A stretch of 64,000 nt of DNA from an uncultured Gammaproteobacteria bacterium (GTDB taxonomy: Bacteria; Pseudomonadota; Gammaproteobacteria; CAVYTG01), in the NCBI GenBank assembly GCA_963771515.1, contig CAVYTG010000001.1, positions 105,820 through 169,819 on the forward strand, written 5' to 3'. Of this stretch, positions 1,491 to 26,908 are shown piece by piece; positions within the stretch are counted from its first letter, which is position 1; every line of letters begins with the position of its first letter. A program made the translations under genes and the position numbers. The notes beneath the pieces are model-generated. The model searched no databases. It was not told where the DNA came from and saw nothing but the letters and a program-made list of their open reading frames with translations.

Positions 1491-2688
1491 TTAGCGTGAA
1501 GCAGGTGAAGAGACATCGTATGAAATTTGTGCAACTTTGTGCTTGAAAGCTCCTGCCTGACAGATCCACTTCCCTAAACGGATTCCGGGCTTTTCAATGT
1601 AGCGATAACAAAGGTCTGCAATGGGGAGTGTGATTAGGCTTAGGACAAGTCCTAACCCAAGCCCTGCGGTCAGAGAATGATGGGTGCAAAGGTCAGGAAA
1701 ATAAAAGTGCATTGCTTCAATCAAGGGATGTAGACCGATGACATTAAATAAATAAAGGCTATAGCTTATGCGGCCTAAATATTGAGAAAAGGGATGATTT
1801 AAACACCTTATCAGTAAACCTCGCTCATTATAATAGACAAAAGCGATTAACCCAAACACACTCATGCCCTGTAAAAATCTTCGAGCCAGCTCAACCATCA
1901 AGCCTGCATCATAAGGAAAGAAATGCTTTGTGGAGAGTGTGAAAAAAAGAAATAAAAATGCAAAACCAGGAGGAAGCATGGAAAAGAACCGTTTAGCTTT
2001 TGGTAAAAGTACCAGGAAGCCGAAAAAGAAACCCATCAGCCCAATGGGTTGATAAAAAGCAAATAGACAACCGTAGAGCAAGGTCAAAATAAAAGCAGTC
2101 CAAAAAAATCGGTCTTTTTGGAAGAGGCAAAACGCAAAAAATACAAAAGGCACAGCCAGCATTTCAGCTTGTAGGGTCCAGGAGGCTCCGTGCAGCGTTG
2201 TTTTATATAAGAAAAGATTTTCCCATAATGCGTTGATTGAAAAGTGGGTATGAAAGCGTGTAGGAGAAACTTGATGGAGTGCGTTAGAAATCCAGTAAAT
2301 GGCTAAAAGGCAAAAAATTAAGGCAGGGTAAATGCGAAACGTACGTTGTATGGCAAAGCGCACAAAATGTTGGATTTTACCTGAGGATAAGTGTTTTTGC
2401 TGAAGAGAGTGTATGAGTATCGCTCCACTTAATACAAAAAACAGATCTACGGCTGAATATCCATTAAAAATAATCAGGCTGATTTTAGGAAAAATATCGT
2501 GAAGGCGTGTCTAACGCATAAACAGGTTTTTTAAGAAGATCGGTAAATGCTGGGTTTACTCCTAAAATAGAATGGAAAAAAACAACGATTAAAGCCGCAT
2601 AGCCTCGTAATCCATCTAATGCAAAAAGCCTTGAAGACTTCATAAAGATATCCAGGAAAATAAAACACGGAAAACCAAGTTTAAACAA
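1491..2688 (-). pseudogene. Acyltransferase family 3 (OafA/OpgC-like) membrane protein, apparently frameshifted near 2485-2513
   Basis: The N-terminal ORF 2485..2688 reads MKSSRLFALDGLRGYAALIVVFFH... and stops at 2485. The C-terminal ORF frame stays open upstream to 2510 and reads ...ISLIIFNGYSAVDLFFVLSGAILIH...QRTFRIYPA..., which carries the acyltransferase-3 hallmarks VDLFFVLSG and RIYP. The two frames overlap, so a single indel would restore a ~390-aa protein. Confidence 0.5.
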
Positions 2689-4024: not shown

Positions 4025-4927
4025 TCAAGTTTTGGACCTGTTATATACAAGCTCTGGTCCATAAAGCTCTGCAACTTCTTCATCGCTGATTATTTCGAAA
4101 TTTTCTTCAATATCAATTTGTTCAAGTTTGTTTTCCTGACTCCCTAAGTCGGTTTCAGTGGAGTCAAAAAAAATGCTTTTATGGCTTGAAATATTGAAAG
4201 AATCAGAAAGCTGATAAGAGGTTTTTAAAGATGTGCCCTCCTTGATTAAATTAGAGTCTTCAAGGCTTTTCAGAAAAGCAGTTGCTTCATCCATATTTGC
4301 AAAGGTTAGTTTTGTGATTTTTCCCGGATAATTGTTTTCAGCATATTTCTCACGTTGCGAAGCATCAAGATTTTTGAAGTAATCACTTCTTTGAAATGCC
4401 TCAAAGCTTTCAAACTCAAGGGTTTCAGAGGGATTGGTTTGATTCTGTGAAGCAGATTGATACAAATCTATAATTTGTTGTGAATGTTCAGGTGTTATTT
4501 GGTCAATTTCAAATACTTTTTCCCCAACATTAAGCGCTAGCAAGCAAGTATGATATTCTGCCTTTTGTTTATCATTTTCAGAATCTTGGCTTTGCTCATC
4601 TTGAGCAGTGACCGAAGTGGATTTTATTTGATTTTGAGCGGCTTCTAAAGTATCAAAATAACCATCAATCTGGCCTTTATTATATCCTCTAGTTAGGTAG
4701 AGATGATATTCTTCACCCATATCGGATTTTAGTTGGCGTGATTTTTGATTGATTTTTTCCATATTCTCTTGGTTAGTACCTGATTCAACAGCATCATTCA
4801 ATATTTTTTTTAAATCAGAAAGGGAAGCATTTATTGATTCTAAAAAACCATAATCAATTATTTGGCCTTCAAGCGCTTTAAGCTCAGCCAAAAAATCATT
4901 TATATTAAGTTCATTTAAATCTTTCAT
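4025..4927 (-). CDS. Hypothetical acidic, coiled-coil-rich protein (300 aa), no recognisable domain; effector-like composition
   Basis: Long ORF convergent with dps. Very acidic and Q/E/S-rich with low complexity. No TM segment or signal peptide seen. Confidence 0.5.
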   Translation of the reverse strand: MKDLNELNINDFLAELKALEGQIIDYGFLESINASLSDLKKILNDAVESGTNQENMEKINQKSRQLKSDMGEEYHLYLTRGYNKGQIDGYFDTLEAAQNQIKSTSVTAQDEQSQDSENDKQKAEYHTCLLALNVGEKVFEIDQITPEHSQQIIDLYQSASQNQTNPSETLEFESFEAFQRSDYFKNLDASQREKYAENNYPGKITKLTFANMDEATAFLKSLEDSNLIKEGTSLKTSYQLSDSFNISSHKSIFFDSTETDLGSQENKLEQIDIEENFEIISDEEVAELYGPELVYNRSKT

Positions 4928-5130: not shown

Positions 5131-5250
5131 CCGTCATTGCGAGCGAAGCGTGGCAATCTAGGTAGGAGTTTGTATCGAAGAATCAAGCTTATGTGACTTT
5201 AATAAGCTTGGGGCTGGATTGCCGCGTCGCTTCGCTCCTCGCAATGACGG
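5131..5250. mobile_element. Family-1 MITE, complete copy (120 bp)
   Basis: TIRs ccgtcattgcgagcgaagcgtggcaatc ... gattgccgcgtcgcttcgctcctcgcaatgacgg flank a central hairpin aagcttatgtgactttaataagctt. Confidence 0.75.
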
Positions 5251-5288
5251 AGGGCTGTTAATTTGCTCAATAACATAGTTGATCCAGA

Positions 5289-5374
5289 TAGGAGTTTGTA
5301 TCAAAGGATCAAGCTTATGTGGCTTTTATAAGCTTAGGCCTGGATTGCCACGTCGCTTCGCTCCTCGCAATGAC
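5289..5374. mobile_element. Family-1 MITE, left-truncated copy, in tandem with 5131..5250
   Basis: Starts inside the element (ataggagtttgtatc...) and ends with ...ggattgccacgtcgcttcgctcctcgcaatgacggg. Confidence 0.65.
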
Positions 5375-5432
5375 GGGAGGGGTAGCTTCATGTGGTGAAT
5401 AATTATCTGTTTTTTTATGATGAGAACCATCA

Positions 5433-7205: not shown

Positions 7206-7263
7206 AGTAGTTATCTATAATTAAAATAATGTGAATAAAAGTGAGGCATTAAGGATGAGATGT

Positions 7264-7767
7264 ATGAATATAAAAAGGATTTTAGGATTTTTTGTATTGT
7301 TGCTAGCACCAGTGACTTTGCTTGCAATACCAGATAAAAAAATATCCGTTAACGATGCGAATACCTCGCTTACGACTAAGCAGGTCCAGCTGGCAGCACA
7401 TGGCGGCGGTCGTGGATGGCATGGTGGCCGAGGTTTTCGAGGTGGTCATGGTTGGCATGGTGCTCGAGGTTTTCGAGGTGGTCGTGGTTGGCATGGCGGT
7501 CGTGGTTGGCATGGCGGTCGTGGCTGGTATAACGGTCGTGGTTGGTATCGTACCCGCGGCTGGCAAGGTGGTTGGCGTGGCGGCTGGATTGGAGGCGTTT
7601 GGTATGCACCGGGTGTTATTCCTCCTGGCTACTATGTAGGATGTAGGAGAGTTAAGGTGTATCGCAGAGTTTGTCGTCCATACTGCTATTGGAGCAATCG
7701 TTACCGTGCTGAACGATGCACTACAAAGTGTACGTCTTACCCTTATTGGATAAGACGTTGTTGGTAA
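7264..7767 (+). CDS. Secreted Gly/Arg/Trp/His tandem-repeat protein with Cys-rich basic C-terminus (hypothetical)
   Basis: The ATG at 7264 follows aagga. Signal-peptide-like MNIKRILGFFVLLLAPVTLLAIP, then about nine copies of GGRGWHG/GRGFRGG, then CRRVKVYRRVCRPYCYWSNRYRAERCTTKCTSYPYWIRRCW with 6 Cys. The overlapping ORFs 7303..7566, 7322..7639 and 7376..7609 are artefacts of the DNA repeat. Confidence 0.6.
   Translation: MNIKRILGFFVLLLAPVTLLAIPDKKISVNDANTSLTTKQVQLAAHGGGRGWHGGRGFRGGHGWHGARGFRGGRGWHGGRGWHGGRGWYNGRGWYRTRGWQGGWRGGWIGGVWYAPGVIPPGYYVGCRRVKVYRRVCRPYCYWSNRYRAERCTTKCTSYPYWIRRCW
7396..7590. repeat. Tandem ~21-bp coding repeats (ggtcgtggttggcatggcggt variants)
   Basis: Visible direct repetition of ggYcgWggHtggcatggYgg units inside the CDS. 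Confidence 0.8.
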
Positions 7768-17628: not shown

Positions 17629-18825
17629 ATGAATTTATCCAACTATGATGTAGATGAAAAAAGAGGTTTTTTACCTTCTTATAATCCATTAAGAAAATTA
17701 CCCGACAAATATAAAGCTTGGGATGAATGTATAAAGCATTTACCTAAATATTTAATATCGGGGCATGTAAGAAAACATTTAGATTTATTGCCGACTTTAT
17801 CGATAGAAGAACTCGATGATGAGCCTAAGCTAAACAGAGCTATGTTGCTTCTTTCATATTTTGGTCATGCTTATGTTTGGGGAGAAAATAAGGCAGCCGA
17901 TACCATTCCTGCGAATATTGCAAAACCTTGGGTTGCTGTCTCAGAAAAATTAGGTCGTCCGCCTGTATTATCTTATGCTTCTCACGCGCTAAATAATTGG
18001 TATCTTGAAGATAACGAAAAACCTATTGAGCTAGGAAATATTGTGAGAATGCACAATTTTGAAGGGGGATTTGATGAAGATTGGTTTGTATTAATTCATA
18101 TTGCAATAGAAGGCGTTGCTCCGCCAGCGATTAAGGCAATTATTAATTTACAAGACCATGTTAAAACGTCTGATCCGAAATCTGCTTTAGCGAGTTTGAC
18201 AATTTTATCTGAGCAGATTGATAAAATAGTGAAAATCCTTAAAAGAATGCCAGAGAACTGTGACCCTTATATATATTACCATCGCGTTAGAAGGTTTATT
18301 TTTGGGTGGATGGGCAACCCTGTCATTCCTGAAGGTGTTTACTACGATGGTGTCGAAAAATGGAATGGAAAACCTCAACAATTTAGAGGAGAAACAGGGG
18401 CTCAAAGCTCAATTATTCCATGTCTTGATGCTGGGCTTGGTTTAGAGTTTGATCCTAATAGCCCTTTATATAAGCACTTAATAGAATTAAGAGATTACAT
18501 GCCTCCTTTACATCGACAGCTTGTTATTGACCTGGAAAAAGCAGAGAAACAGAACTCTGTTAGGGTATTTATCAAAAATAATGCAAAAAATTATCCGAAA
18601 CTTATTGACCTTTACAATGAATGTTTGGAAGGCATTTATCAGTTTAGGCTACAACATTTAAATTTTGCAAAAGCCTATATAAACATTCAAGCAGAAAGAG
18701 CTTCTAGCCCTGTCAATGTTGGAACAGGGGGCACCCCCTTTATAAAATATCTTGGGGATCATTGTGATGAAGTATTAAAACAAAAATTGACCCATGTTCA
18801 TCAAGATGAATTAGTTCAAGCCTGA
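17629..18825 (+). CDS. Indoleamine 2,3-dioxygenase (IDO)-family heme dioxygenase homologue
   Basis: Collinear with human IDO1 from memory: YDVDEKRGFLPSYNPLRKLPDKYKAWDECIKHLPKYL against [42 protein letters not shown] against MAYVWG; RGETGAQSSIIPCLDAGLG against AGGSAGQSSVFQCFDVLLG; LRDYMPPLHRQ against MRRYMPPAHRN; GTGGTPFIKYL against GTGGTDLMNFL. Confidence 0.75.
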   Translation: MNLSNYDVDEKRGFLPSYNPLRKLPDKYKAWDECIKHLPKYLISGHVRKHLDLLPTLSIEELDDEPKLNRAMLLLSYFGHAYVWGENKAADTIPANIAKPWVAVSEKLGRPPVLSYASHALNNWYLEDNEKPIELGNIVRMHNFEGGFDEDWFVLIHIAIEGVAPPAIKAIINLQDHVKTSDPKSALASLTILSEQIDKIVKILKRMPENCDPYIYYHRVRRFIFGWMGNPVIPEGVYYDGVEKWNGKPQQFRGETGAQSSIIPCLDAGLGLEFDPNSPLYKHLIELRDYMPPLHRQLVIDLEKAEKQNSVRVFIKNNAKNYPKLIDLYNECLEGIYQFRLQHLNFAKAYINIQAERASSPVNVGTGGTPFIKYLGDHCDEVLKQKLTHVHQDELVQA

Positions 18826-18872
18826 TTTGGCGTACCCTAATCTAAAATTGCTTATAGGCTCACAAATAATTT

Positions 18873-19850
18873 TTGAGGTTTATGATGGACCACTATCGTT
18901 CTTTTATTGATACCTGGGATAACTATGCCACGGTAAGATCTAGACCAAGACGGCTAATAGATGCTAACCATGTTCATGAAGTTTATCATTATCCCATTTC
19001 TCGAATGCCTGTTGCTGTGCATCCCATTGTTGCTGCAAAAGGAGATTCTTTTTTAAAGAAAATGCTTGCTCAAGCCTGTGTTTTTTACTTGAAATCGATT
19101 GCAAGTCTTGAAACAGAAGTCATAAATAAAGCTGCTTTAACACTCATCAATGGAAATTTATCTCATATAATACCTGAGCCTTTAAAGCTAGACCTACTCA
19201 GCATAGTTGTAGATGAAGCCTATCATGCGCATGTCGCCAGAGATTATAGTTTGCAGTTAAAAAATTTATTAGATTTACCTGATGTTTATGCAAATATTTA
19301 TTCAGATTTAGGCCATTCAATCACCAAGCATATGAGTGATTTAAAGCCTGACTGTCAAGATGACTTTCTGGTCATAGCCGTATGTATAGGGGAACACACT
19401 TTAACCCCAGAAATAGCGAGTATGGGGCGCGAGGAAAATGTTGCTTCAAGTTTTACTGGCCTGATGAAAGACCATGTTACAGATGAAGGTCGTCATGCAA
19501 CCTTATTTAAGCATGTTCTGAAATTAGTTTGGGCAAACTTAACTCTGATAAAAAAGCAATCTATTTCAAAAGTATTACCTCATTTTGTCAAAGAATATCT
19601 ATCTGAAAGCTATGCTAAAAAATTTATAAAAGATTTGCTCTTACACGAAAAAATCAGTGAACAAGAGGTCGATAAAATCATGAAAGAAAGTTTTCATCAA
19701 TGTTACTTAGGCGAAAACAATAGTTCTTTCAGAAATATTTGTAAATTGTTTCAGTCTTCAAGTTTATTGGATGACCCTTTATTGGTATCAGAATTTCAAA
19801 AAAATCGTATAGACATAGGAATTGAGAAGTGCGTAGACTCAACTTTATAG
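18873..19850 (+). CDS. Ferritin-like diiron-carboxylate oxygenase candidate (AurF/CmlI-like N-oxygenase or heme-oxygenase-like diiron oxidase)
   Basis: Two E-x(~30)-[DE]ExxH pairs: ...LETE...(x33)...DEAYHAH and ...GEHTL...(x28)...DEGRHAT. 325 aa, no TM. Assignment rests on motif spacing only. Confidence 0.35.
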   Translation: MRFMMDHYRSFIDTWDNYATVRSRPRRLIDANHVHEVYHYPISRMPVAVHPIVAAKGDSFLKKMLAQACVFYLKSIASLETEVINKAALTLINGNLSHIIPEPLKLDLLSIVVDEAYHAHVARDYSLQLKNLLDLPDVYANIYSDLGHSITKHMSDLKPDCQDDFLVIAVCIGEHTLTPEIASMGREENVASSFTGLMKDHVTDEGRHATLFKHVLKLVWANLTLIKKQSISKVLPHFVKEYLSESYAKKFIKDLLLHEKISEQEVDKIMKESFHQCYLGENNSSFRNICKLFQSSSLLDDPLLVSEFQKNRIDIGIEKCVDSTL

Positions 19851-22800
19851 TCAGAGGAGAATCAAATTTTACGCTTAGGTGTATCCAGGCGCTCTCTGAT
19901 CTCGGTCATAATATATTATGCCTTGAAACCGAAAATGTAAAAATTCTAGAATTTGCATCTAAAGAAAACATAGATAGTGTTCAGCCTAGTGAGCAATCAA
20001 AAACCCAGGATACAAACAGTATCTATGTTTCAATAGATGCTCTCGGCGACCCTTCTCATCCTTTAAATAATATAGCGTGTCATATTCGACTACATAGGGT
20101 TGAACCTGAAGATAATAAAAATAAAAGCTACTGGAGCGTTGACTTAAAAAATAATGTTTATTTAAAACAACCTCCCCAAGATCTGCTCGCGGATGAAGAT
20201 GAGCTTTTAACAAATTTAGAGTTTATCATCAATCAATTTGCCAGATTAGGACTTCATGATCCTGGTCTAAAAGAAGCAAGTTCAAATAACTTTGTCACAG
20301 AAATCCCTATTGCTTCAGAGCTTGATTATAGATATATATTAGGAGGATTATTATTTTTTATTTCTCTATTTAAAAAAGAAGAACTCATAGAATTAACCCT
20401 TCCTGTCAATGATATGGGTTTCTTCTATCCAGATTTCCAAGGAAAACTTCAAAAAGCTGAAAAGTATGAGATTAATTTAAGCCAAGTACACACCCCTTCT
20501 CATTTGCTTTCAGTCGTAGATCAAACGCTCCAGGATTTTAAAGGAAATCATAATCTTTTTTGTCTCTCCAGTTGCCTATACTTTAAATTCGATGTTGAGG
20601 ATACCCAAAAATTGGGTTTATATCTCTCAACATTTAATAAACTATTTTTATTACATAAGGGGCAAAAAAAACAAGACATACAGAATCTTATCCGCCTTTT
20701 CAGGCTGATTTATGAGGCTATTTCAAGTGTGCAAAACCTAGATTGCTCGCTTAATGATCTCAACTTAGTTGATTTGGATACCATAAAATTTTTAAGTCAA
20801 ATAGGTGGCTTTACTCACTACCACCCGCCCCAAGCAGAAGAAACAATTATTTCTGCTATTTCAAAAAACATTAAAAATTATCCTGATCACATTGCAATTG
20901 AATATAGTGATCAGTCATTAACCTACGAAGCGCTGGGGAAGCTTTCTGTCCATTTATCTAAGCAAATTTCAAAAAAACTAGGTCCCGTAAAATCTGCAAA
21001 GATTATTCTTTGTGTTGAAAGAGGAATTAATCTGGTTGCTACCATTTTAGCAATCTGGCGCTTAGGACATGCGTATGTTCCGGTTGCTTTAGATTTCCCA
21101 GAAGAAAGAATGCTTGAAATTATTCAGCAATTAAACGAACCTCTTATAATTACTGATCATAATCGAGCTGATTTTTTTACACACTATCCTAATTTTATCA
21201 ATTTATCTACGTTAGCATTAGAAAAAAGGAATGATCTTGATTTGAGCCAAGAAGAGCTCATGACAGGAATCTCTGGTGATGATCTTGCTTATATCATCTA
21301 TACCTCTGGTTCTACAGGGGCTCCCAAAGGCGTTATGATGCATCATAAAGGTGCACTTAACATGATACAATGGACTGTAGAAAACTACCCCATTACTTCA
21401 AAGGATAAAGTGATACAAATGGCATCCTTTGCTTTTGATTTTTCAGTCTGGGAAATGATGTCGGCTCTTACCTCAGCTGCTTGCTTGGTTCTCACAGAAG
21501 AGAAAAAATATAGAGATCCAAGGTATTTAGTCAATCTAATAAGAGAAAAACAAATTACGATTCTTGGATGTGTGACTTCTTTGTTTCGATATCTGTTAGA
21601 TGAACCTGGATTCTCTCAATGCACTAGCTTAAAACGAATAGTAGTCGGTGCTGAACCTTTAACTCTTTCTATAAAAAATAAACTGTACGAAATTCACCCT
21701 CATGTCACCTTATATCATGGTTATGGACCAACTGAAACAGCGATAACATCTGTTCATTGGGAATGTCCAAATACTTATAACCATTTAGATATACCGATTG
21801 GAAAGCCCATAGCGAACACCAAAGTTGCTGTAGTCTCTGAATCTCTTAAAATACTACCACCAGGGTTGCCTGGTGAGCTCCTAATTGGTGGCATTGGTGT
21901 AGGGCGAGGGTATCTCAATCAAAGTGATCTTACAAACCAAAAATTTATTCATTTAAATATCTTAGGAGATACCGATTTATTTTATAGAACGGGTGATATC
22001 GTTCGGTGGAGTGGCAATCATTTAATTTTTGTTGGTCGTAAAGATCAAATGATAAAGTTACATGGCCTGCGCATAGAGTTAGAGGAAATTGAAAAGGCGA
22101 TGGAATCTCTAGCTTATATCAAGGCAGCTGCTGTTAAATTTCATAAAAATGAAAAACGAGCTTCGCTTATCGGATATTTTATTGTAGAACCGTCCCAACT
22201 GACTAAAAATGAAAATTTAACCCAAAAGCATTTAAATTTATGGAAAAATTTTTATGATGATTCGTACAAAGATTCACACAATCGACATGAAACAACATTT
22301 AATACCGTTGGTTGGAAAAGCACTTTTACAAATCAGGAATATTCCTCTGATTTGATGAAAGAATGGAGGGATGAAATTGTAGAATTAATCCTAGGATACA
22401 ACCCTAATAACGTTCTTGAAATTGGTTGCGGAACAGGTCTTATTTACCATGCTCTAAAAGGAAAAATCAAAAAATATATTGGAATAGATTATGCTCAAGT
22501 CATTATTGACAGAATGCTGAGCACAGAAGCTGCTGAGATAGAATTAGGAAAAAGCAACTTTTTCCACTGCTCCGCCAATAAGATAGAAAAAATTAAGCCT
22601 CTTTTGGATAATGCGCTCCCCATTGACTGTGTCGTGATTAATTCTGTTGTCCAGTATTTCCCTAGCACTGAGTTTCTAGAAAACGTCTTAGATAAGATTA
22701 TAAAATACATAAATCCTAACTATATTGTTTTAGGAGACATATTGGATTTTAGAACAAACAAACTTTTTTATGAAAAAGAATATTCTGTTAAGAAAGAACT

Positions 22801-25800
22801 GGGGCATATTTCCCTTTCAAAAACAGAGTTTATACAAAATCGCTTAAAGACAGAAAAAGAACTTTTTATTCATCCAGTTTTTTTCATAGACTTTGCTAAA
22901 AAAAATCGTGCACTACAATCCATTGGTCTATTTCCTAAAATGGGTGTTGGAAGTACCGAGATGAATCAATTCAGATATAATGTTGTACTATCCACTCAAC
23001 ATGGAAGCAAGATAAAAGCAAATTCTATACTATGCAAAAATCCTCTGGAAATAAAAAAGCAAATTCAAACCCAAGCACTCATTAAAACGGATAACCATTG
23101 GCTAAATTGTACTGATGGTTCTCATCATACCAGGCGTTTACCTAAAGAAATACAGCTTGAAATGAAACAAAGTGGTCTAGATGTAAATATTGTACTTGAC
23201 CCGTTAACGCCAGAATATCTCTATATCATTAAAGATGAAAATTTTGGTCACTTGCAAAGTCTAGATTCACAAAATCTACGCTCAGAAGGGAAAAATGTTA
23301 TTCACTATTCCAATGTAACTTCTCTATTAAAAGAAGAAGTAATCTCAAAAGTAATATTCGAAGACTTACAAAAAAAATTACCACACTATATGATTCCAAG
23401 CCTTTTTAAACAGCTTGAAGTATTTCCGATGACCTCGAGTGGTAAAGTTGACAAGAAGCGTTTACCTACCATTATAGAACTTGAAGCTGCGCTATCTGAT
23501 AATCCAGAAGAAGCAAAATTACAAAAAATTCTTTCAGAAGCCATCGGAATAAAATCAATAGGAATAGATGAAAATTTCTTCTCTTCAGGTGGAAATTCCT
23601 TATCAGCGATTAATGCAGTGTACAAAATTACAGAAAATTTTGACGTGGATTTCTTTGTTAAAGATTTATTCGAATTTGATTCTGCAAAAAAAGTTGCTCA
23701 ATTTATAAAAGATAATAGAAAAAATAAAGTAACCAAAATAAAAAAGCAGCCCTTTGAGCGTTATTCTGATTTTCTTTTAACCCATGCACAAAATAGGTTG
23801 TGGTTCCTACATAAACTTGATGAGCAAAAATCTAGCGCATATAACGTACCTCTGTTAATAAAATTAAACGGACATCTAAATATTAAAAAGCTTAAGGATT
23901 CCATCAATACACTTATTTCAAAACATGATGCTTTAAGATTAATCTTTATTGATAAAAAAGGAATAGCATTCCAGAAAATTTTAGAGAAATATGAGATTGA
24001 GCTGCCTGTTGTCGACTTTCCTTCCCATCAAGCTACTTTAAAAGGAATCAACGATGTCATTAATCAGCCTTTTAAGTTAGATACAACCCCCCCCATTAGG
24101 TTTACTATATTCACAAAGAATAATTTAGCCCAATACCTGGTTATTGTAATACATAATATCATAACAGACGGTTGGTCTATGTCGTTACTTATTGATCAGC
24201 TTTATAAAATCTATAACGACCAGGAGGAAGCTTTTCAAGCTCATAATCCTTTAGGATTTATACAAGAATATTTACCATTTACTTCCAATAAACCCAAAAG
24301 CTATTACTTAGAAGGCATAAATTACTGGAAAGAATACTTAAATAATTTTGTGGAATTAAACTTCCCTTATCCTTATAAAAACGTAAAAAAAGTAGAAAAT
24401 CATTTAGAGTCAAAAAGGGAAACTTTATCAGGCGAAACGATAAGTAATATATATCAGGTAGCAAGCCATTATAACGTTTCACCTTTTGCCATTATTAAAT
24501 CCACTTTTGCTGTTTTGCTGAATAAATACACGCAACAAGAAGACATTGTTTTTGGTTCAGTATTGTCAAATAGGGAGCTACAGTCTTTAAAAGATGTTAT
24601 TGGATTTATGGTGAATACAGTCGTATTTCGGTATAAACTTGACGAAGCCACGATCTTTAAAGATTTAATAGTTCAGGCTCAAAACTCTACGAGGTTGGCA
24701 TATAGCTATCAAGATATTCCCTTTGAAGATGTTGTTAAACAAGTGACAAAATCTCGTTGCTTGAACAAAACCCCAATTTTTCAATTTATGTTTATTTCAC
24801 AAGACGTGAGTGAGATAAACACCCTGAAGCTTGGAGAATGCTACTGTAAAGTAGTGCCATCAGCGCCAAATCAAGCAATGTTTGCAATGACTTTCAATTA
24901 TGTTCTTACAAAAAAGGACCTAAAGGTTGATATTTACTATGATGCTTCTCTTTTCTCTCCGACTTCAATTGACCATTTTTTAGCAAATTTTTTCCATTTA
25001 CTAAAAACATTGTTAAATAACCCCTTGGGGCTGATCGAAAAGGTTTCTATCGTTTCTGAACATGAAAGGAACTTGCTATTAACTCAGTATAATCCTAAGC
25101 CTGATAGAAATCTCGTCAATAAATTAGTTTACCCCTTGTTTCATGAAGCTGCGTATGAAAATTTAGATAGAATAGCCTGTTTAGATGAAACAGGCAGTAC
25201 TACGTACAAAGCGCTATTATCCCAGGTTAATAAGTTTTCTAATATTCTTTCTGTCCCAACAAATGTTGCTACGGCAGCCATTATTTCGACTCCTGGTATC
25301 TTATCAACCGCGCTTGCATTGGCTTGCTTAAAATGTGGTATTACTATTGTTTTTATAGACCCAAGTCTACCTGCTAGCCGAATAGAATATATGCTTAAAG
25401 CATCCAAAACCGATATTTTATTTTCTCATGAATTAAATAATGCTATAACGATTCCAAAAAACATTCAGTGTTACCATTTTGCTCACGATGAAACAGTAGC
25501 AAGTACAGAAAAAGGCTTTAATATTGTAAAGGAGGTTACACCTGATCATTGCGCATACATTGTGTTTACTTCTGGAACAACAGGAGCGCCAAAAGCTGTA
25601 CAAGTGTTACAGCGTAATCTTGCTAATGCAATTTTGCATTTTAGAAAAGTACTTAATATGGGCCAACTTGATAAAGTATTAAGTATGACACGCCCCAGTT
25701 TCGATATTTTTTATTTAGAGATGCTCCTTCCCATTATATCAGGGTCTAGTGTTCAATTTATGCACCCAGATTTGAGTATTGACCCATCTGAAATCATTAA

Positions 25801-26893
25801 AAATATAAGTAACTTTGAACCCACCCTCATTCAAGCAACGCCCTCTAGATGGGAGTTAATACGCGCTGAATATATTTCGAAAGAAAAAAACTTTCATGTT
25901 CCTAAAATACTAACTGGTGGGGAACCTCTTTCACATCAACTGCTAACATTTTTATACAGTCAATCTGATCTATTGCTGAATGTTTATGGTCCCAGTGAAA
26001 CCACAATCTGGTCAACTGAATATAAATTCGGTAATGTGAGTCAAATTATATCCATAGGCAAACCTATATCAAATACAGAATGTTATATTTTAGATAAACA
26101 CAAGAACATAATACCAATAAATGCGATAGGGGAGCTATATATCGGTGGAGAAGGCGTAACCAAAGGCTATCTGAATGACACTTTAAAAAATAAAGCAGCT
26201 TTTTTCAACATAAGATTAGACAATGAAAATAAATATTTATATAAAACAGGAGATTTAGCTTCTTGGGATGAAGAAGGGAATTTACTATTTCATGGAAGAG
26301 TAGATAAGCAGATAAAAATAAGAGGATACCGTATTGAACCCGGTGAAATACTATTTTATTTAAAAAAATATCCAAGCGTTGAACATGCCCATGTTTTATT
26401 TCAAAAAGATCAGTCAACCTTGTGTGCCTTTATTAAGGTAAAAAAGAGCTATGAAGATCAATTCAATACTTCACAACTGAATGCTTTTTTGAAGCAAGAA
26501 TTACCCGAATATATGATTCCTTCCCATTATTATATCGTTGAAAATATACCGTTAAGTGTTAATGGAAAGGTAGACGAATTTGCTTTGAATAACTTGAGAG
26601 AAAAACAGTCTTATCAAGAGGTAAAAAATATTAAATTACCTTCCAATGATTTACAAAGCAAGCTTTGTACGATTTGGCAAAACGCTTTAAATATAGATGA
26701 ATTTAGCGTAGACAGCAGCTTCTATGAATTAGGAGGACATTCTCTTTTGGCGCCCAAGATTGTCTGGGAAATTAATGCGATATTTGGCTGTGATTTAACC
26801 ATAAGAAACTTTATTACGAACAATACCATAGAAAAATTGGCCATTTTTATAAAAGATAGGCAGGTTACTATGGTTGCCTCTGAAGTAGATTAA
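19829..26893 (+). CDS. Bimodular nonribosomal peptide synthetase: unknown N-terminal ~330-aa region, then A (with embedded N-methyltransferase), T, C (HNxxxDG), A, T; no TE/R domain
   Basis: Module 1 A motifs: LTYEALG, LAYIIYTSGSTGAPKGV, FDFSVWE, YGPTETAI, GELLIGGIGVGRGYLN, YRTGDIVRW, GRKDQMIKLHGLRIELEEIE; MT insert VLEIGCGTGL; then LPHYMIPS and SGKVDKKRLP. T1 is FFSSGGNSLSAI. C has HAQNRLWFL and IHNIITDGWS. Module 2 A motifs: YIVFTSGTTGAPKAV, NVYGPSETTI, GELYIGGEGVTKGYLN, YKTGDLASW, GRVDKQIKIRGYRIEPGEI, NGKVDEFAL. T2 is LGGHSLLAPKI. Its start overlaps the upstream gene by 22 nt. Confidence 0.9.
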   Translation: MRRLNFIVRGESNFTLRCIQALSDLGHNILCLETENVKILEFASKENIDSVQPSEQSKTQDTNSIYVSIDALGDPSHPLNNIACHIRLHRVEPEDNKNKSYWSVDLKNNVYLKQPPQDLLADEDELLTNLEFIINQFARLGLHDPGLKEASSNNFVTEIPIASELDYRYILGGLLFFISLFKKEELIELTLPVNDMGFFYPDFQGKLQKAEKYEINLSQVHTPSHLLSVVDQTLQDFKGNHNLFCLSSCLYFKFDVEDTQKLGLYLSTFNKLFLLHKGQKKQDIQNLIRLFRLIYEAISSVQNLDCSLNDLNLVDLDTIKFLSQIGGFTHYHPPQAEETIISAISKNIKNYPDHIAIEYSDQSLTYEALGKLSVHLSKQISKKLGPVKSAKIILCVERGINLVATILAIWRLGHAYVPVALDFPEERMLEIIQQLNEPLIITDHNRADFFTHYPNFINLSTLALEKRNDLDLSQEELMTGISGDDLAYIIYTSGSTGAPKGVMMHHKGALNMIQWTVENYPITSKDKVIQMASFAFDFSVWEMMSALTSAACLVLTEEKKYRDPRYLVNLIREKQITILGCVTSLFRYLLDEPGFSQCTSLKRIVVGAEPLTLSIKNKLYEIHPHVTLYHGYGPTETAITSVHWECPNTYNHLDIPIGKPIANTKVAVVSESLKILPPGLPGELLIGGIGVGRGYLNQSDLTNQKFIHLNILGDTDLFYRTGDIVRWSGNHLIFVGRKDQMIKLHGLRIELEEIEKAMESLAYIKAAAVKFHKNEKRASLIGYFIVEPSQLTKNENLTQKHLNLWKNFYDDSYKDSHNRHETTFNTVGWKSTFTNQEYSSDLMKEWRDEIVELILGYNPNNVLEIGCGTGLIYHALKGKIKKYIGIDYAQVIIDRMLSTEAAEIELGKSNFFHCSANKIEKIKPLLDNALPIDCVVINSVVQYFPSTEFLENVLDKIIKYINPNYIVLGDILDFRTNKLFYEKEYSVKKELGHISLSKTEFIQNRLKTEKELFIHPVFFIDFAKKNRALQSIGLFPKMGVGSTEMNQFRYNVVLSTQHGSKIKANSILCKNPLEIKKQIQTQALIKTDNHWLNCTDGSHHTRRLPKEIQLEMKQSGLDVNIVLDPLTPEYLYIIKDENFGHLQSLDSQNLRSEGKNVIHYSNVTSLLKEEVISKVIFEDLQKKLPHYMIPSLFKQLEVFPMTSSGKVDKKRLPTIIELEAALSDNPEEAKLQKILSEAIGIKSIGIDENFFSSGGNSLSAINAVYKITENFDVDFFVKDLFEFDSAKKVAQFIKDNRKNKVTKIKKQPFERYSDFLLTHAQNRLWFLHKLDEQKSSAYNVPLLIKLNGHLNIKKLKDSINTLISKHDALRLIFIDKKGIAFQKILEKYEIELPVVDFPSHQATLKGINDVINQPFKLDTTPPIRFTIFTKNNLAQYLVIVIHNIITDGWSMSLLIDQLYKIYNDQEEAFQAHNPLGFIQEYLPFTSNKPKSYYLEGINYWKEYLNNFVELNFPYPYKNVKKVENHLESKRETLSGETISNIYQVASHYNVSPFAIIKSTFAVLLNKYTQQEDIVFGSVLSNRELQSLKDVIGFMVNTVVFRYKLDEATIFKDLIVQAQNSTRLAYSYQDIPFEDVVKQVTKSRCLNKTPIFQFMFISQDVSEINTLKLGECYCKVVPSAPNQAMFAMTFNYVLTKKDLKVDIYYDASLFSPTSIDHFLANFFHLLKTLLNNPLGLIEKVSIVSEHERNLLLTQYNPKPDRNLVNKLVYPLFHEAAYENLDRIACLDETGSTTYKALLSQVNKFSNILSVPTNVATAAIISTPGILSTALALACLKCGITIVFIDPSLPASRIEYMLKASKTDILFSHELNNAITIPKNIQCYHFAHDETVASTEKGFNIVKEVTPDHCAYIVFTSGTTGAPKAVQVLQRNLANAILHFRKVLNMGQLDKVLSMTRPSFDIFYLEMLLPIISGSSVQFMHPDLSIDPSEIIKNISNFEPTLIQATPSRWELIRAEYISKEKNFHVPKILTGGEPLSHQLLTFLYSQSDLLLNVYGPSETTIWSTEYKFGNVSQIISIGKPISNTECYILDKHKNIIPINAIGELYIGGEGVTKGYLNDTLKNKAAFFNIRLDNENKYLYKTGDLASWDEEGNLLFHGRVDKQIKIRGYRIEPGEILFYLKKYPSVEHAHVLFQKDQSTLCAFIKVKKSYEDQFNTSQLNAFLKQELPEYMIPSHYYIVENIPLSVNGKVDEFALNNLREKQSYQEVKNIKLPSNDLQSKLCTIWQNALNIDEFSVDSSFYELGGHSLLAPKIVWEINAIFGCDLTIRNFITNNTIEKLAIFIKDRQVTMVASEVD

Positions 26894-26908
26894 TAATATT
26901 GGTGAAGT

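Follow-up and report, generated by a model that had tools for sequence, protein, structure and literature searches.

An indoleamine 2,3-dioxygenase of the bacterial clade encoded within a compact NRPS cluster on a low-GC genomic island

Dioxygenases that open the tryptophan ring have previously been found beside the NRPS genes that use their product. Fungal pairs of an indoleamine 2,3-dioxygenase (IDO) with an NRPS are known from terreazepine (TzpB) and nanangelenin (NanC) biosynthesis, while in bacteria DptJ, the TDO of daptomycin biosynthesis, feeds kynurenine to an NRPS (PMC7448278). The locus described here would follow the same logic, but its host is a bacterium, unlike those of TzpB and NanC, and its enzyme is an IDO rather than a TDO, unlike DptJ. 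IDO and TDO, which an earlier sequence-only reading of this DNA had called unrelated, both belong to the haem-dependent aromatic oxygenase superfamily (PMC11904535). Bacterial IDOs were described earlier (Yuasa, Ushigoe, Ball 2011, Gene 485:22; cited in PMC4217691); the literature reviewed in PMC4217691 reports the Gemmatimonas and Streptomyces scabiei enzymes as active dioxygenases and some recombinant bacterial IDOs as turning over tryptophan very slowly. Also among the known systems closest to this locus are the ham/pvf clusters of fragin, valdiazen and pyrazine N-oxides (PMC5878181, PMC11659414), where, as here, an N-oxygenase gene lies directly upstream of the NRPS gene. The partner set as a whole, comprising a HamC/PvfB-like N-oxygenase, an NRPS of the layout A-T-C(HN)-A(Gly)-T that lacks a release domain and an MFS transporter, has no described counterpart, and our literature search brought up nothing on a Legionella IDO/NRPS and no study in which AurF, kynurenine and NRPS come together.

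Identity, active site and ancestry of the IDO

Within the 64-kb stretch of DNA that was analysed (the window), the gene under study is a complete reading frame.

17629..18825, + strand: IDO gene, ATG to TGA, 398 aa, bacterial IDO clade

Its product matches the Pfam IDO family PF01231 with 327.2 bits (E 1.7e-97; gathering cut-off 26) over residues 3-360, corresponding to profile positions 2-366 of 412. BLASTP aligns it with human IDO1 at 32% identity over 384 columns (E 6e-60), reaching the GTGGT motif, and a phmmer search of the PDB matches residues 2-359 to IDO2 (E 1.6e-58) and human IDO1 (~1e-52). The whole-length similarity to human IDO1 asserted in the sequence-only reading is thus borne out, as are both motifs that it quoted: the GETGAQSS loop (G254-E-T-G-A-Q-S-S261) pairs with human G261-G-S-A-G-Q-S-S268, and G365-T-G-G-T369 pairs with the human GTGGT. 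An AlphaFold2 model (pLDDT 86, pTM 0.86) contains the two-domain IDO fold, with its small and large helical domains, and can be laid over the crystal structures of human IDO1 and IDO2 at TM scores of 0.88-0.94, the rmsd being ~2.0-2.3 Å over ~390 columns (Foldseek). The gene encodes an intact, full-length IDO-family haem enzyme, and the similarity is far beyond chance.

The catalytic residues are also retained. The proximal haem ligand, His343, aligns with human His346 and is invariant in 120/120 bacterial homologues, as is each of Arg221 (human R231), Phe153 (F163), Tyr116 (Y126) and Thr366 of the GTGGT loop (T379). Retention of Arg221, the Trp-carboxylate binder, and of the GTGGT threonine argues for a free amino-acid substrate. 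Three positions depart from the human enzyme: the distal residue is His157 in place of Ser167 of human IDO1, Glu255 replaces Gly262 and His119 replaces Cys129. Because His157 and Glu255 are invariant in all 120 homologues, stand-alone genes included, they are features of the clade rather than adaptations to this cluster, and TDO, which is a genuine dioxygenase, normally has a distal histidine as well (PMC11904535). In line with His157, the entry for the human S167H mutant (6CXU) has a slightly better phmmer E-value than the wild-type IDO1 entries. Human IDO1 and IDO2 structures (PDB 2D0T, 6E44, 9UYY and others) resemble the window enzyme in fold, proximal His, Arg231, Phe163, Tyr126 and GTGGT loop, and share with it the flexible JK and 261-265 loops, where the window model has low pLDDT; they differ in an identity of only 30-32% and in the distal position, which is TDO-like in the window enzyme.

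The nearest relatives of the window IDO are bacterial, at 45-57% identity among >6000 matches spread over more than a dozen phyla; the best 120 of these matches are 47-57% identical, and the named ones are bacterial. Of 599 pattern-matched stretches from species-representative bacterial and archaeal genomes, 561 encode a relative, again from many phyla, and the relatives include Gemmatimonadales, Streptomyces and Micromonospora sequences. In a neighbour-joining tree with one eukaryotic sequence, human IDO1 forms a long branch outside the bacterial radiation. The description of this gene as eukaryotic-type, or as acquired from a eukaryote, therefore gives way to that of an apparently ordinary bacterial lineage, and a recent eukaryotic import is not supported by these comparisons. 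The window IDO shares its Pfam family, two-domain fold and haem and substrate residues with bacterial IDOs such as the Gemmatimonas aurantiaca and Streptomyces scabiei enzymes; in contrast to these, it falls in a small, low-GC subclade that is marked by signature residues and always lies beside one NRPS/N-oxygenase/MFS set.

The island, its operon and the partner enzymes

The IDO gene lies in a ~16-kb island with a GC content of 0.32-0.38, against 0.40-0.45 in the flanks. The island splits the zapA-ssrS-ygfA unit, being inserted between ssrS/ygfA and zapA, and its features and edges are as follows.

11153..11830: 5-formyl-THF cyclo-ligase gene (ygfA), overlapped by ssrS
11726..11909, - strand: 6S RNA (ssrS), 80 bits against a gathering score of 46.4; left chromosomal edge
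12225..13763, + strand: MATE-family efflux transporter; first gene of the island
13941..15521, + strand: 526-aa multi-pass membrane protein; accessory
15524..16375, + strand: mitochondrial-carrier-family (eukaryote-like) membrane protein, PF00153 79 bits; accessory, outside the conserved core
16382..17626, + strand: Bcr/CflA-family MFS efflux transporter; conserved core partner of the IDO
18882..19850, + strand: diiron N-oxygenase of the AurF superfamily, HamC/PvfB-like, PF11583 42 bits
19829..26893, + strand: bimodular NRPS, 2354 aa, with two AMP-binding, one Condensation and two PP-binding domains and an embedded methyltransferase
26909..27757, + strand: stand-alone SAM-dependent methyltransferase (UbiE-like), with an orthologue in locus L082 (43%) and none in L083 or L085
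27960..28097, no strand assigned: one occurrence of a palindromic repeat that is dispersed in this genome, at the right island boundary
28133..28453, - strand: zapA, right chromosomal edge, followed by pepP (29132..) and ubiH (30424..)

We propose that the 16-kb unit arrived in its entirety by horizontal transfer; no direct repeats were found flanking it, and promoter and terminator scans of it gave no signal above chance. The operon runs in the order MATE, membrane protein, mitochondrial-carrier-like protein, MFS, IDO, diiron N-oxygenase, NRPS and methyltransferase. Only 2 nt separate the MFS and IDO genes, the ribosome-binding site of the latter (GGAG, 7 nt upstream) lies within the 3' end of the former, and the N-oxygenase gene extends at its 3' end 22 nt into the start of the NRPS gene; the IDO is translationally coupled within the operon. 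With the NRPS located and its domains identified, the NRPS-cluster setting claimed from sequence stands. For the 526-aa membrane protein, searches of Pfam, NCBIfam, the PDB and PADLOC gave nothing, even at E 10. Neither in the cluster nor in the 64-kb window was a gene for kynurenine formamidase, for kynureninase or for any other step of the kynurenine pathway found; two FAD_binding_3 proteins were considered as kynurenine monooxygenases and rejected, both being UbiH/UbiI-type hydroxylases. Three uncommon features come together in this compact cluster: its IDO, its N-oxygenase of the HamC/PvfB type and a condensation domain of the HN variant.

The N-oxygenase likely starts at ATG 18882, which is preceded by a GAGG site, the mechanical reading frame beginning at TTG 18873. 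All seven iron ligands of AurF (ligand set E, ExxH, E, HxxxExxH) can be aligned, as ETE, DEAYH, GEH and H..DEGRH against the motifs of AurF entry 3CHH. The protein is 30% identical (171 bits) to a Burkholderia cenocepacia hamC-like ORF, taken as hamC from its flanking cupin and NRPS genes in an unannotated record, and scores 28 bits against AurF. An exhaustive HMMER search recovered homologues fused as AurF-A-T and AurF-A-T-C, while a word-indexed homologue search with the N-oxygenase matched only itself. An arylamine oxygenase acting on free kynurenine, an idea resting on analogy with PrnB and PrnD in pyrrolnitrin, was downgraded since the enzyme is HamC/PvfB-like and its homologues are fused to A-T modules; aryl-amine oxidation of the tethered residue is possible. 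The gene product is predicted to be an NRPS-associated enzyme of the HamC/PvfB type that N-oxygenates a carrier-bound amino acid, the substrate of HamC and PvfB being NRPS-tethered valine (PMC11659414). Beyond this likeness the systems diverge, as the ham/pvf NRPSs (HamD/PvfC) are A-T-R whereas that of the window is A-T-C-A-T, the window cluster has an IDO and an MFS transporter instead of HamA/PvfA and HamE/PvfD homologues, and its A1 pocket is aromatic rather than valine-type.

The NRPS has the layout X-A(MT)-T-C-A-T, with a ~345-aa N-terminal region followed by A1 with its embedded methyltransferase, T1, C, A2 and T2; no TE or R release domain was found in it. The N-terminal region likewise had no counterpart in Pfam, NCBIfam, the PDB or PADLOC at E values up to 10, and only its first ~45 residues are weakly common to the NRPS of L082; an early idea that the N-terminus resembles a formyltransferase found no support. 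The condensation domain carries the motif HNIITDGWS, in which the second His of HHxxxDG is missing, so the assembly chemistry may be unconventional. The specificity codes read DFWGVGGITK for A1 and DILQLGVIWK for A2. Judged by its code, A2 looks glycine-specific. The A1 code, DFWGVGGITK or DIWHVGGITK across the IDO-linked clusters, is PheA-like (DAWTIAAICK) with A301G and A322G and could accept a large aromatic side chain; it matched no code assignable to kynurenine or tryptophan, and it was not found in the NRPSs, available as partial sequences, beside IDOs of other phyla.

Conservation of the cluster across loci

At least six further metagenomic loci contain the core of MFS transporter, IDO, N-oxygenase and bimodular NRPS, arranged in one or other of two gene orders. 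L082 shares the MFS-IDO-AurF-NRPS-MT order, L083 and L085 have AurF-NRPS-IDO-MFS, and the truncated contigs L088, L089 and L090/L091 retain NRPS-IDO-MFS. Identities to the window proteins are 42-51% for the MFS transporter (L082, L083, L085, L088), 33-38% for the N-oxygenase, 31-32% for the NRPS and 43% for the methyltransferase. The cluster-linked IDOs group together in the neighbour-joining tree with a bootstrap of only 39%, and signature residues L126, M228, Y281 and S360 occur in 9/9 of them, compared with no more than 11% of the 111 remaining bacterial IDOs. The sister IDOs of L003, L084 and L086 are stand-alone genes, and most bacterial IDOs surveyed are not adjacent to NRPS genes. Several low-GC bacteria, some of which at least look host-associated, thus have this cluster of the peptide-antibiotic type, in which the IDO is a constant component. 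The window's own genome is absent from the GTDB species representatives; a search with its IleRS retrieved relatives at 76-80% and 'Gammaproteobacteria bacterium' MAGs at ~55%, and the organism is taken to be a deep-branching gammaproteobacterium, probably Legionellales-like.

A cousin of the cluster on plasmid pPCS109 of Ca. Megaera polyxenophila (AP017967.1, MPCS_01917-01924) provides a natural comparison. Its N-oxygenase and NRPS are 36% and 34% identical to those of the window, the NRPS repeats the X-A-T-C(HNIITDGWS)-A(DILQLGVIWK)-T layout, and there too a MATE pump and a mitochondrial-carrier-family protein are encoded; the mitochondrial-carrier proteins of the two clusters are non-orthologous. 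In place of the IDO and MFS genes, which it lacks, the plasmid cluster encodes a CmlA-type beta-hydroxylase and a thioesterase. Its A1 domain has the code DTEEIGLMNK, and across the codes compared here, the module-1 code co-varies with IDO presence. Separately, IDOs occur in NRPS clusters in several phyla, the cases being this cluster family and unrelated giant NRPSs in Micromonospora and Gemmatimonadales.

Proposed pathway and alternative roles

On balance, we favor the reading that a small NRPS pathway has taken over a functional haem dioxygenase of the widespread bacterial IDO clade as its dedicated supplier of a precursor. The IDO would convert free L-tryptophan and O2 to N-formylkynurenine, which may become kynurenine by spontaneous deformylation or through an enzyme encoded elsewhere. 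A1, with a PheA-like aromatic pocket widened by the two Ala-to-Gly changes, would load (N-formyl)kynurenine on T1, where the HamC/PvfB-type diiron enzyme may N-oxygenate the bound residue at its alpha-amine, as HamC and PvfB do, or at the new aryl amine. The unusual C domain (HNxxxDG) would then couple the T1 residue to glycine loaded by A2, and the methyltransferases would decorate the product. Because there is no TE or R domain, the dipeptide is probably released by intramolecular cyclisation, after which the MFS and MATE pumps would export it. The supply of a kynurenine or N-formylkynurenine building block, one of the roles raised in the sequence-only reading, is the best-supported interpretation because the IDO-NRPS linkage is kept in at least six other loci and in both gene orders. 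Counting against this scheme are the lack of a kynurenine-pathway gene nearby, the unassigned A1 code, the 39% bootstrap and the C domain without its second His, together with the slow recombinant bacterial IDOs noted in PMC4217691 and superfamily members with other chemistry, such as MarE (PMC11904535).

Other roles for the enzyme have to be weighed against this one. The IDO could instead act in late tailoring, with A1 loading Trp and the ring being opened on T-bound Trp or on a released Trp-Gly (N-hydroxy) dipeptide or diketopiperazine. Various indoleamines serve as substrates of IDO enzymes, the structural matches include IDO2 entries with 5-HT, D-Trp and substituted Trp, the roomy aromatic A1 pocket could fit Trp as well as kynurenine, and the cluster has no formamidase. 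Nevertheless, we consider late tailoring unlikely, as the free amino-acid contacts Arg221 and Thr366 are invariant and the same as in stand-alone bacterial IDOs, and no subclade-specific substitution maps to known substrate-contact residues. It is less plausible still, and in our estimate quite improbable, that the fold supports other chemistry on an indole or aromatic substrate, such as 2-oxindole monooxygenation as in MarE or a PrnB-like rearrangement. The superfamily is functionally diverse (PMC11904535), several characterized bacterial IDOs are poor Trp dioxygenases according to PMC4217691, and His157 and Glu255 stand where human IDO1 has Ser167 and Gly262; yet both residues are clade-wide, TDO normally has a distal His (PMC11904535), and among the relatives are sequences from Gemmatimonadales and Streptomyces, with dioxygenase activity reported for the enzymes of Gemmatimonas and Streptomyces scabiei (PMC4217691).

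That a housekeeping IDO of tryptophan catabolism or the NAD pathway sits beside the NRPS cluster by chance would fit the many bacterial IDOs without NRPS neighbors and the close stand-alone sisters in L003, L084 and L086. We regard such a coincidence as very improbable, given that the IDO keeps its orthologous MFS, N-oxygenase and NRPS neighbors at six or more other loci despite gene-order rearrangement, that the gene is translationally coupled inside the operon and lies on a low-GC island within a conserved chromosomal unit, and that no other kynurenine-pathway gene is nearby. The remaining alternative, a eukaryote-derived effector secreted into a host cell for tryptophan depletion, draws on an organism that looks host-associated (a 2.0-Mb genome, an ankyrin and WD40 protein) and on the mitochondrial-carrier-like gene in the IDO operon. 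The suggestion of a secreted, host-tryptophan-depleting enzyme is not supported, and we give it hardly any credence: the closest relatives come from many free-living bacterial phyla at 45-57% identity against 32% for human IDO1, direct reading of the N-terminus (MNLSNYDVDEKRGFLPSYNPL), which covers Sec and Tat signals, reveals no hydrophobic core of a signal peptide, and the synteny with co-varying biosynthetic partners is conserved. An attractive story of eukaryote-to-bacterium transfer and host tryptophan starvation is thereby corrected, and a concrete biosynthetic hypothesis remains.

If the IDO is indeed a precursor enzyme, a physiological role is suggested for at least some members of the large clade of bacterial IDOs, a clade whose function had been questioned because some of its recombinant enzymes are slow. 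More tentatively, the cluster might represent a hitherto unseen family of natural products confined to low-GC, host-associated bacteria, namely Legionellales-like gammaproteobacteria, with the IDO-less cousin in the Rickettsiales symbiont Ca. Megaera. An IDO-made ortho-aminophenyl ketone side chain, on-line N-oxygenation and HN-type C-domain coupling to glycine could yield an N-hydroxy, nitroso or diazeniumdiolate-like kynurenine-glycine metallophore or signal directed toward the host, with the mitochondrial-carrier-type protein perhaps handling the compound or its precursor at the host or bacterial membrane. Hosts of the cluster are hard to culture, and the MFS-to-methyltransferase stretch (16382..27757, ~11.4 kb) is small enough for direct heterologous expression.

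Identity and ancestry of the dioxygenase

The sequence-only reading had proposed an indoleamine 2,3-dioxygenase (IDO) homologue at 17629-18825, and the ORF listing contains one ATG-initiated ORF of 398 residues occupying exactly 17629-18825 (+), with a GGAG site 7 nt upstream of its start, inside the 3' end of the gene before it. Residues 3-360 match Pfam PF01231 (IDO) with 327.2 bits (cut-off 26, E 1.7e-97), and a PDB-wide phmmer search matched only entries of IDO2 (E 1.6e-58) and IDO1 (about 1e-52), so that the claim stands after the family and structure searches that had been set beforehand as its refutation test. BLASTP aligns human IDO1 with the window IDO over 384 columns (32% identity, E 6e-60); the human sequence used agrees with the PDB alignments and with the 30-31% identities from structure comparison. 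Both motifs quoted in support of the proposal are present, GETGAQSS (254-261), which pairs with GGSAGQSS of human IDO1, and GTGGT (365-369). An AlphaFold2 model built from 21 homologues (pLDDT 86, pTM 0.86) can be superposed over both domains on crystal structures of human IDO1 and IDO2 (TM 0.88-0.94, rmsd 2.0-2.3 Å), and its only low-confidence stretches, 256-258 and 354-369, correspond to two mobile elements of IDO1, loop 261-265 and the JK loop.

The active site was compared in an alignment of the window IDO, human IDO1 and 119 homologues from bacteria (human residues are prefixed h). The proximal heme-ligand histidine, on which the homology claim also hung, is present as His343 (hHis346) and is invariant in 120 of 120 bacterial IDOs, as are Arg221 (the carboxylate-binding hArg231), Phe153 (hPhe163), Tyr116 (hTyr126) and Thr366 of the GTGGT loop (hThr379). 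The bacterial clade as a whole differs from human IDO1 in carrying His157 for hSer167, Glu255 for hGly262, Thr256 for hSer263 and Gly257 for hAla264, while hCys129 is replaced by His119 in the window IDO and by His or Tyr (56 and 64, respectively) among the 120 bacterial sequences. A distal His is found in TDO (PMC11904535), and the slightly better phmmer E-value of the human IDO1 S167H mutant entry (6CXU), relative to wild-type IDO1 entries, fits with a TDO-like distal His157. None of the active-site differences sets the window gene apart in this alignment, and the identification as an IDO is solid and unsurprising.

Acquisition of the gene from a eukaryote, also raised by the sequence-only reading, is, as a recent event, contradicted by its relatives. 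A large-database search gave 6320 significant matches among 8000 candidates scored, the best non-self match being 57% identical and the named ones all bacterial (Longimicrobium, Micromonospora, Bacteroidia, Planctomycetes, Thermodesulfobacteriota). In a one-genome-per-species bacterial and archaeal collection, 561 of 599 pattern-matched stretches encode a relative; the best 80 of the 561 (44-55% identity) come from Legionellales, Coxiellaceae, Gemmatimonadota, Actinomycetota, Chloroflexota, Bacteroidota, Armatimonadota, Myxococcota, Bdellovibrionota, Cyanobacteriota, Acidobacteriota, Chlamydiota and others. In a neighbor-joining (NJ) tree, human IDO1 lies on a long branch outside all bacterial IDOs; with this one eukaryotic sequence, the tree excludes a recent transfer and does not address the deep history of the family. 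The phylogeny thus indicates that the window IDO is not of recent eukaryotic origin. PMC4217691 cites an earlier description of bacterial IDOs (Yuasa et al. 2011); it lists the enzymes of Gemmatimonas and Streptomyces scabiei as active and describes an IDO phylogeny in which three branches mix bacteria and eukaryotes.

An inserted operon

The IDO gene belongs to a run of eight plus-strand genes that overlap or lie no more than 177 nt apart, the majority of the gaps being 2-16 nt.

Genes of the run and its flanks (window positions)
11153-11830 (-), 5-formyl-THF cyclo-ligase, left of the island
11726-11909 (-), 6S RNA (80 bits), left of the island
12225-13763 (+), MATE pump
13941-15521 (+), 526-aa membrane protein without family
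15524-16375 (+), mitochondrial-carrier-family protein (PF00153), co-operonic with the NRPS cluster
16382-17626 (+), Bcr/CflA MFS pump
17629-18825 (+), IDO
18882 (likely ATG start)-19850 (+), AurF-superfamily diiron protein
19829-26893 (+), NRPS
26909-27757 (+), UbiE-like methyltransferase
28133-28453 (-), zapA, right of the island, followed by pepP and ubiH

GC content is 0.32-0.38 over 12-28 kb and 0.40-0.45 in both flanks. The E. coli chromosome has zapA, ssrS and ygfA in a single unit that is divergent from pepP-ubiH; here a 16-kb low-GC block on the opposite strand separates the 6S RNA (11726-11909) and ygfA from zapA (28133-28453), and this splitting of the unit identifies the block as an island that has been inserted.

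Two kinds of repeat were also observed. Sixteen arm matches (0.03 expected by chance) reveal a palindromic repeat, REP/MITE-like and dispersed through the window, whose arm is CTCGCAATGACGG; one copy (27960-28097) lies at the right island edge, between the methyltransferase gene and zapA, and further arm copies lie at 1257, 5131-5376, 7171, 39277-39396, 42096, 47744-47860, 55483-55520 and 63617-63656; the positions compared with the ORF list are intergenic. Between the MATE and 526-aa membrane-protein genes, a 167-nt near-perfect palindrome (13765-13931), with 49-nt arms that are 90% complementary and a nested perfect inverted repeat of 18 nt, occurs once in the window.

Cluster conservation and assembly-line specificity

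The gene set recurs on other low-GC contigs (0.34-0.38) that carry the most closely related IDO genes: L082 has the order MFS-IDO-AurF-NRPS(A-T-C-A-T)-MT, where MT is a methyltransferase; L083 and L085 have AurF-NRPS-IDO-MFS; and L088, L089 and L090/L091 have NRPS-IDO-MFS, their contigs ending there. Orthologous partners share 42-60% (MFS), 33-38% (AurF-like), 29-40% (NRPS) and 43% (MT) identity. The cluster-linked IDOs group together in the NJ tree with a bootstrap of only 39%, within a clade supported at 88%, and all nine carry L126, M228, Y281 and S360, residues found in at most 11% of the 111 other bacterial IDOs. The next-closest IDOs, from a Legionellales MAG (L003) and from L084 and L086, have no cluster partners, and a survey of 171 IDO loci placed the AurF-like partner in this cluster family only. 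What emerges is a conserved cluster that includes the IDO.

Elsewhere, in a Micromonospora sp. (L175), a Gemmatimonadales MAG (L176) and a high-GC metagenomic contig (L087), an IDO adjoins an unrelated giant NRPS (>4700 and >6600 aa), with a PPTase, a tryptophan halogenase, an Asp/Glu-racemase-like gene or a CmlA-like hydroxylase nearby. Such pairings in other phyla suggest that bacterial IDOs have been recruited to peptide clusters more than once.

Stachelhaus positions were read by alignment to GrsA-PheA, a reference validated by recovery of DAWTIAAICK. The A2 code, DILQLGVIWK in the window, L088 and the Ca. Megaera cluster described below, with close variants elsewhere, may be compared with the glycine code DILQLGLIWK. 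The A1 code, DFWGVGGITK in the window and DIWHVGGITK in L083, L085 and L088, matched no assignable proteinogenic code; the pocket it predicts is PheA-like and aromatic, and roomier because Gly replaces both Ala301 and Ala322. In the C domain, HNIITDGWS (around NRPS residue 1442; identical in L082, L083, L085, L088, L089 and L092) has Asn in place of the second, normally catalytic His of HHxxxDG. Neither a TE nor an R domain was found in the window NRPS, which ends with T2.

A natural control is offered by L092, the pPCS109 plasmid of Ca. Megaera polyxenophila, a symbiont in the Rickettsiales. Its sister cluster shares the N-oxygenase (36% identity), MATE pump and NRPS (34% identity), the last with the same layout, HN motif and A2 code, and also includes a mitochondrial-carrier gene. 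Unlike the window, it has no IDO, encoding a CmlA-type beta-hydroxylase and a thioesterase instead, and its A1 code, DTEEIGLMNK, is quite unlike that of the window. The residue that module 1 selects thus appears to vary with the precursor or tailoring enzyme; no other in-silico result points as strongly to module 1 handling the IDO product, or at least tryptophan. The two mitochondrial-carrier proteins (15524-16375 (+) in the window, 8483-9430 in L092) are no orthologues of each other, their best BLASTP match having E 0.006. A eukaryote-type carrier thus accompanies this type of biosynthetic cluster in two intracellular-type bacteria that are not related.

The diiron protein keeps the ligand motifs of AurF (3CHH) in alignment, yet scores only 28 bits against it; a Burkholderia cenocepacia ORF scores 171 bits (30% identity, E 7e-54). 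A cupin gene and an NRPS lie on either side of this ORF, a context matching the described hamB-hamC-hamD arrangement (PMC5878181), from which the ORF is presumed to be hamC. An exhaustive HMMER search of 1.84 billion proteins gave 605 representatives at E <= 1e-3, a small family in which the homologue can be the N-terminal domain of an NRPS (AurF-A-T in P0245; AurF-A-T-C in P0275, P0276, P0283 and P0287). HamC and PvfB oxidise valine tethered to their own NRPS (PMC11659414), and by this analogy the window enzyme most likely acts on the residue held by T1. A Fischerella sp. NIES-4106 plasmid (plasmid2, L094, 11977-19092) pairs an AurF-like protein (35% identity) with a bimodular NRPS (A-domain codes DASTIAAVCK and DLYNMSLIWK) that lacks the HNIITDGWS motif of the window family; downstream of this pair are genes for a histidine decarboxylase and a tryptophan halogenase.

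Proposed pathway and its host

We propose that IDO converts free L-Trp to N-formylkynurenine, possibly on to kynurenine, and that A1 loads this product on T1. The diiron enzyme would N-oxygenate an amine of the tethered residue, either the alpha-amine, following the HamC/PvfB precedent, or the aryl amine, for which a side-chain amine in the Megaera substrate may be a parallel. The HN-type C domain would couple the residue to Gly-S-T2 and, since there is no release domain, intramolecular attack would free a product that, in some members only, embedded and stand-alone methyltransferases would methylate; MFS and MATE pumps would export it. As a whole mechanism, from IDO through loading, N-oxygenation and glycine coupling to release and export, we judge this moderately probable.

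Its main rival, in which IDO acts on the tethered or cyclised dipeptide, is unlikely, as the retained Arg221 and Thr366 would grip the free amino-acid end of tryptophan and so favour the free substrate. Non-canonical chemistry by the IDO is a distinctly slim prospect. That the IDO is a housekeeping gene fortuitously adjacent to the NRPS cluster seems very improbable, and the sequence-only suggestion of a secreted, eukaryote-derived effector depleting host tryptophan is hardly credible: the protein has no signal peptide, and both the phylogeny and the conserved operon speak against it. With the exotic readings of the IDO refuted, a compact, conserved cluster with a clear experimental path remains.

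Fungal IDO-NRPS pairs (TzpB, NanC) and a bacterial TDO-NRPS pair (DptJ) are known (PMC7448278), as are HamC/PvfB-NRPS pairs (PMC5878181, PMC11659414). Each element has precedent; our literature search found no description of an IDO combined with a HamC/PvfB-like oxygenase, A-T-C(HN)-A(Gly)-T and MFS, as seen in these low-GC bacteria.

Of the low-GC bacteria with this cluster, the window organism, at least, looks to be host-associated. Only metagenomic proteins match its IleRS at 76-80% identity, and Gammaproteobacteria MAGs reach about 55%; it is a deep-branching gammaproteobacterium, with its genome in a 2.0-Mb contig. A 630-aa protein (59395-61287 (+)) joins ankyrin repeats to a WD40 beta-propeller, a eukaryote-like architecture typical of host-associated bacteria. 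Five ORFs of 178-363 aa, 1491-2363 (-), 4025-4927 (-), 7231-7767 (+), 35932-36669 (+) and 36737-37828 (-), have no Pfam, NCBIfam or PADLOC match and lie among housekeeping genes (ileS, hemA, hemF, gyrB and the atp operon).
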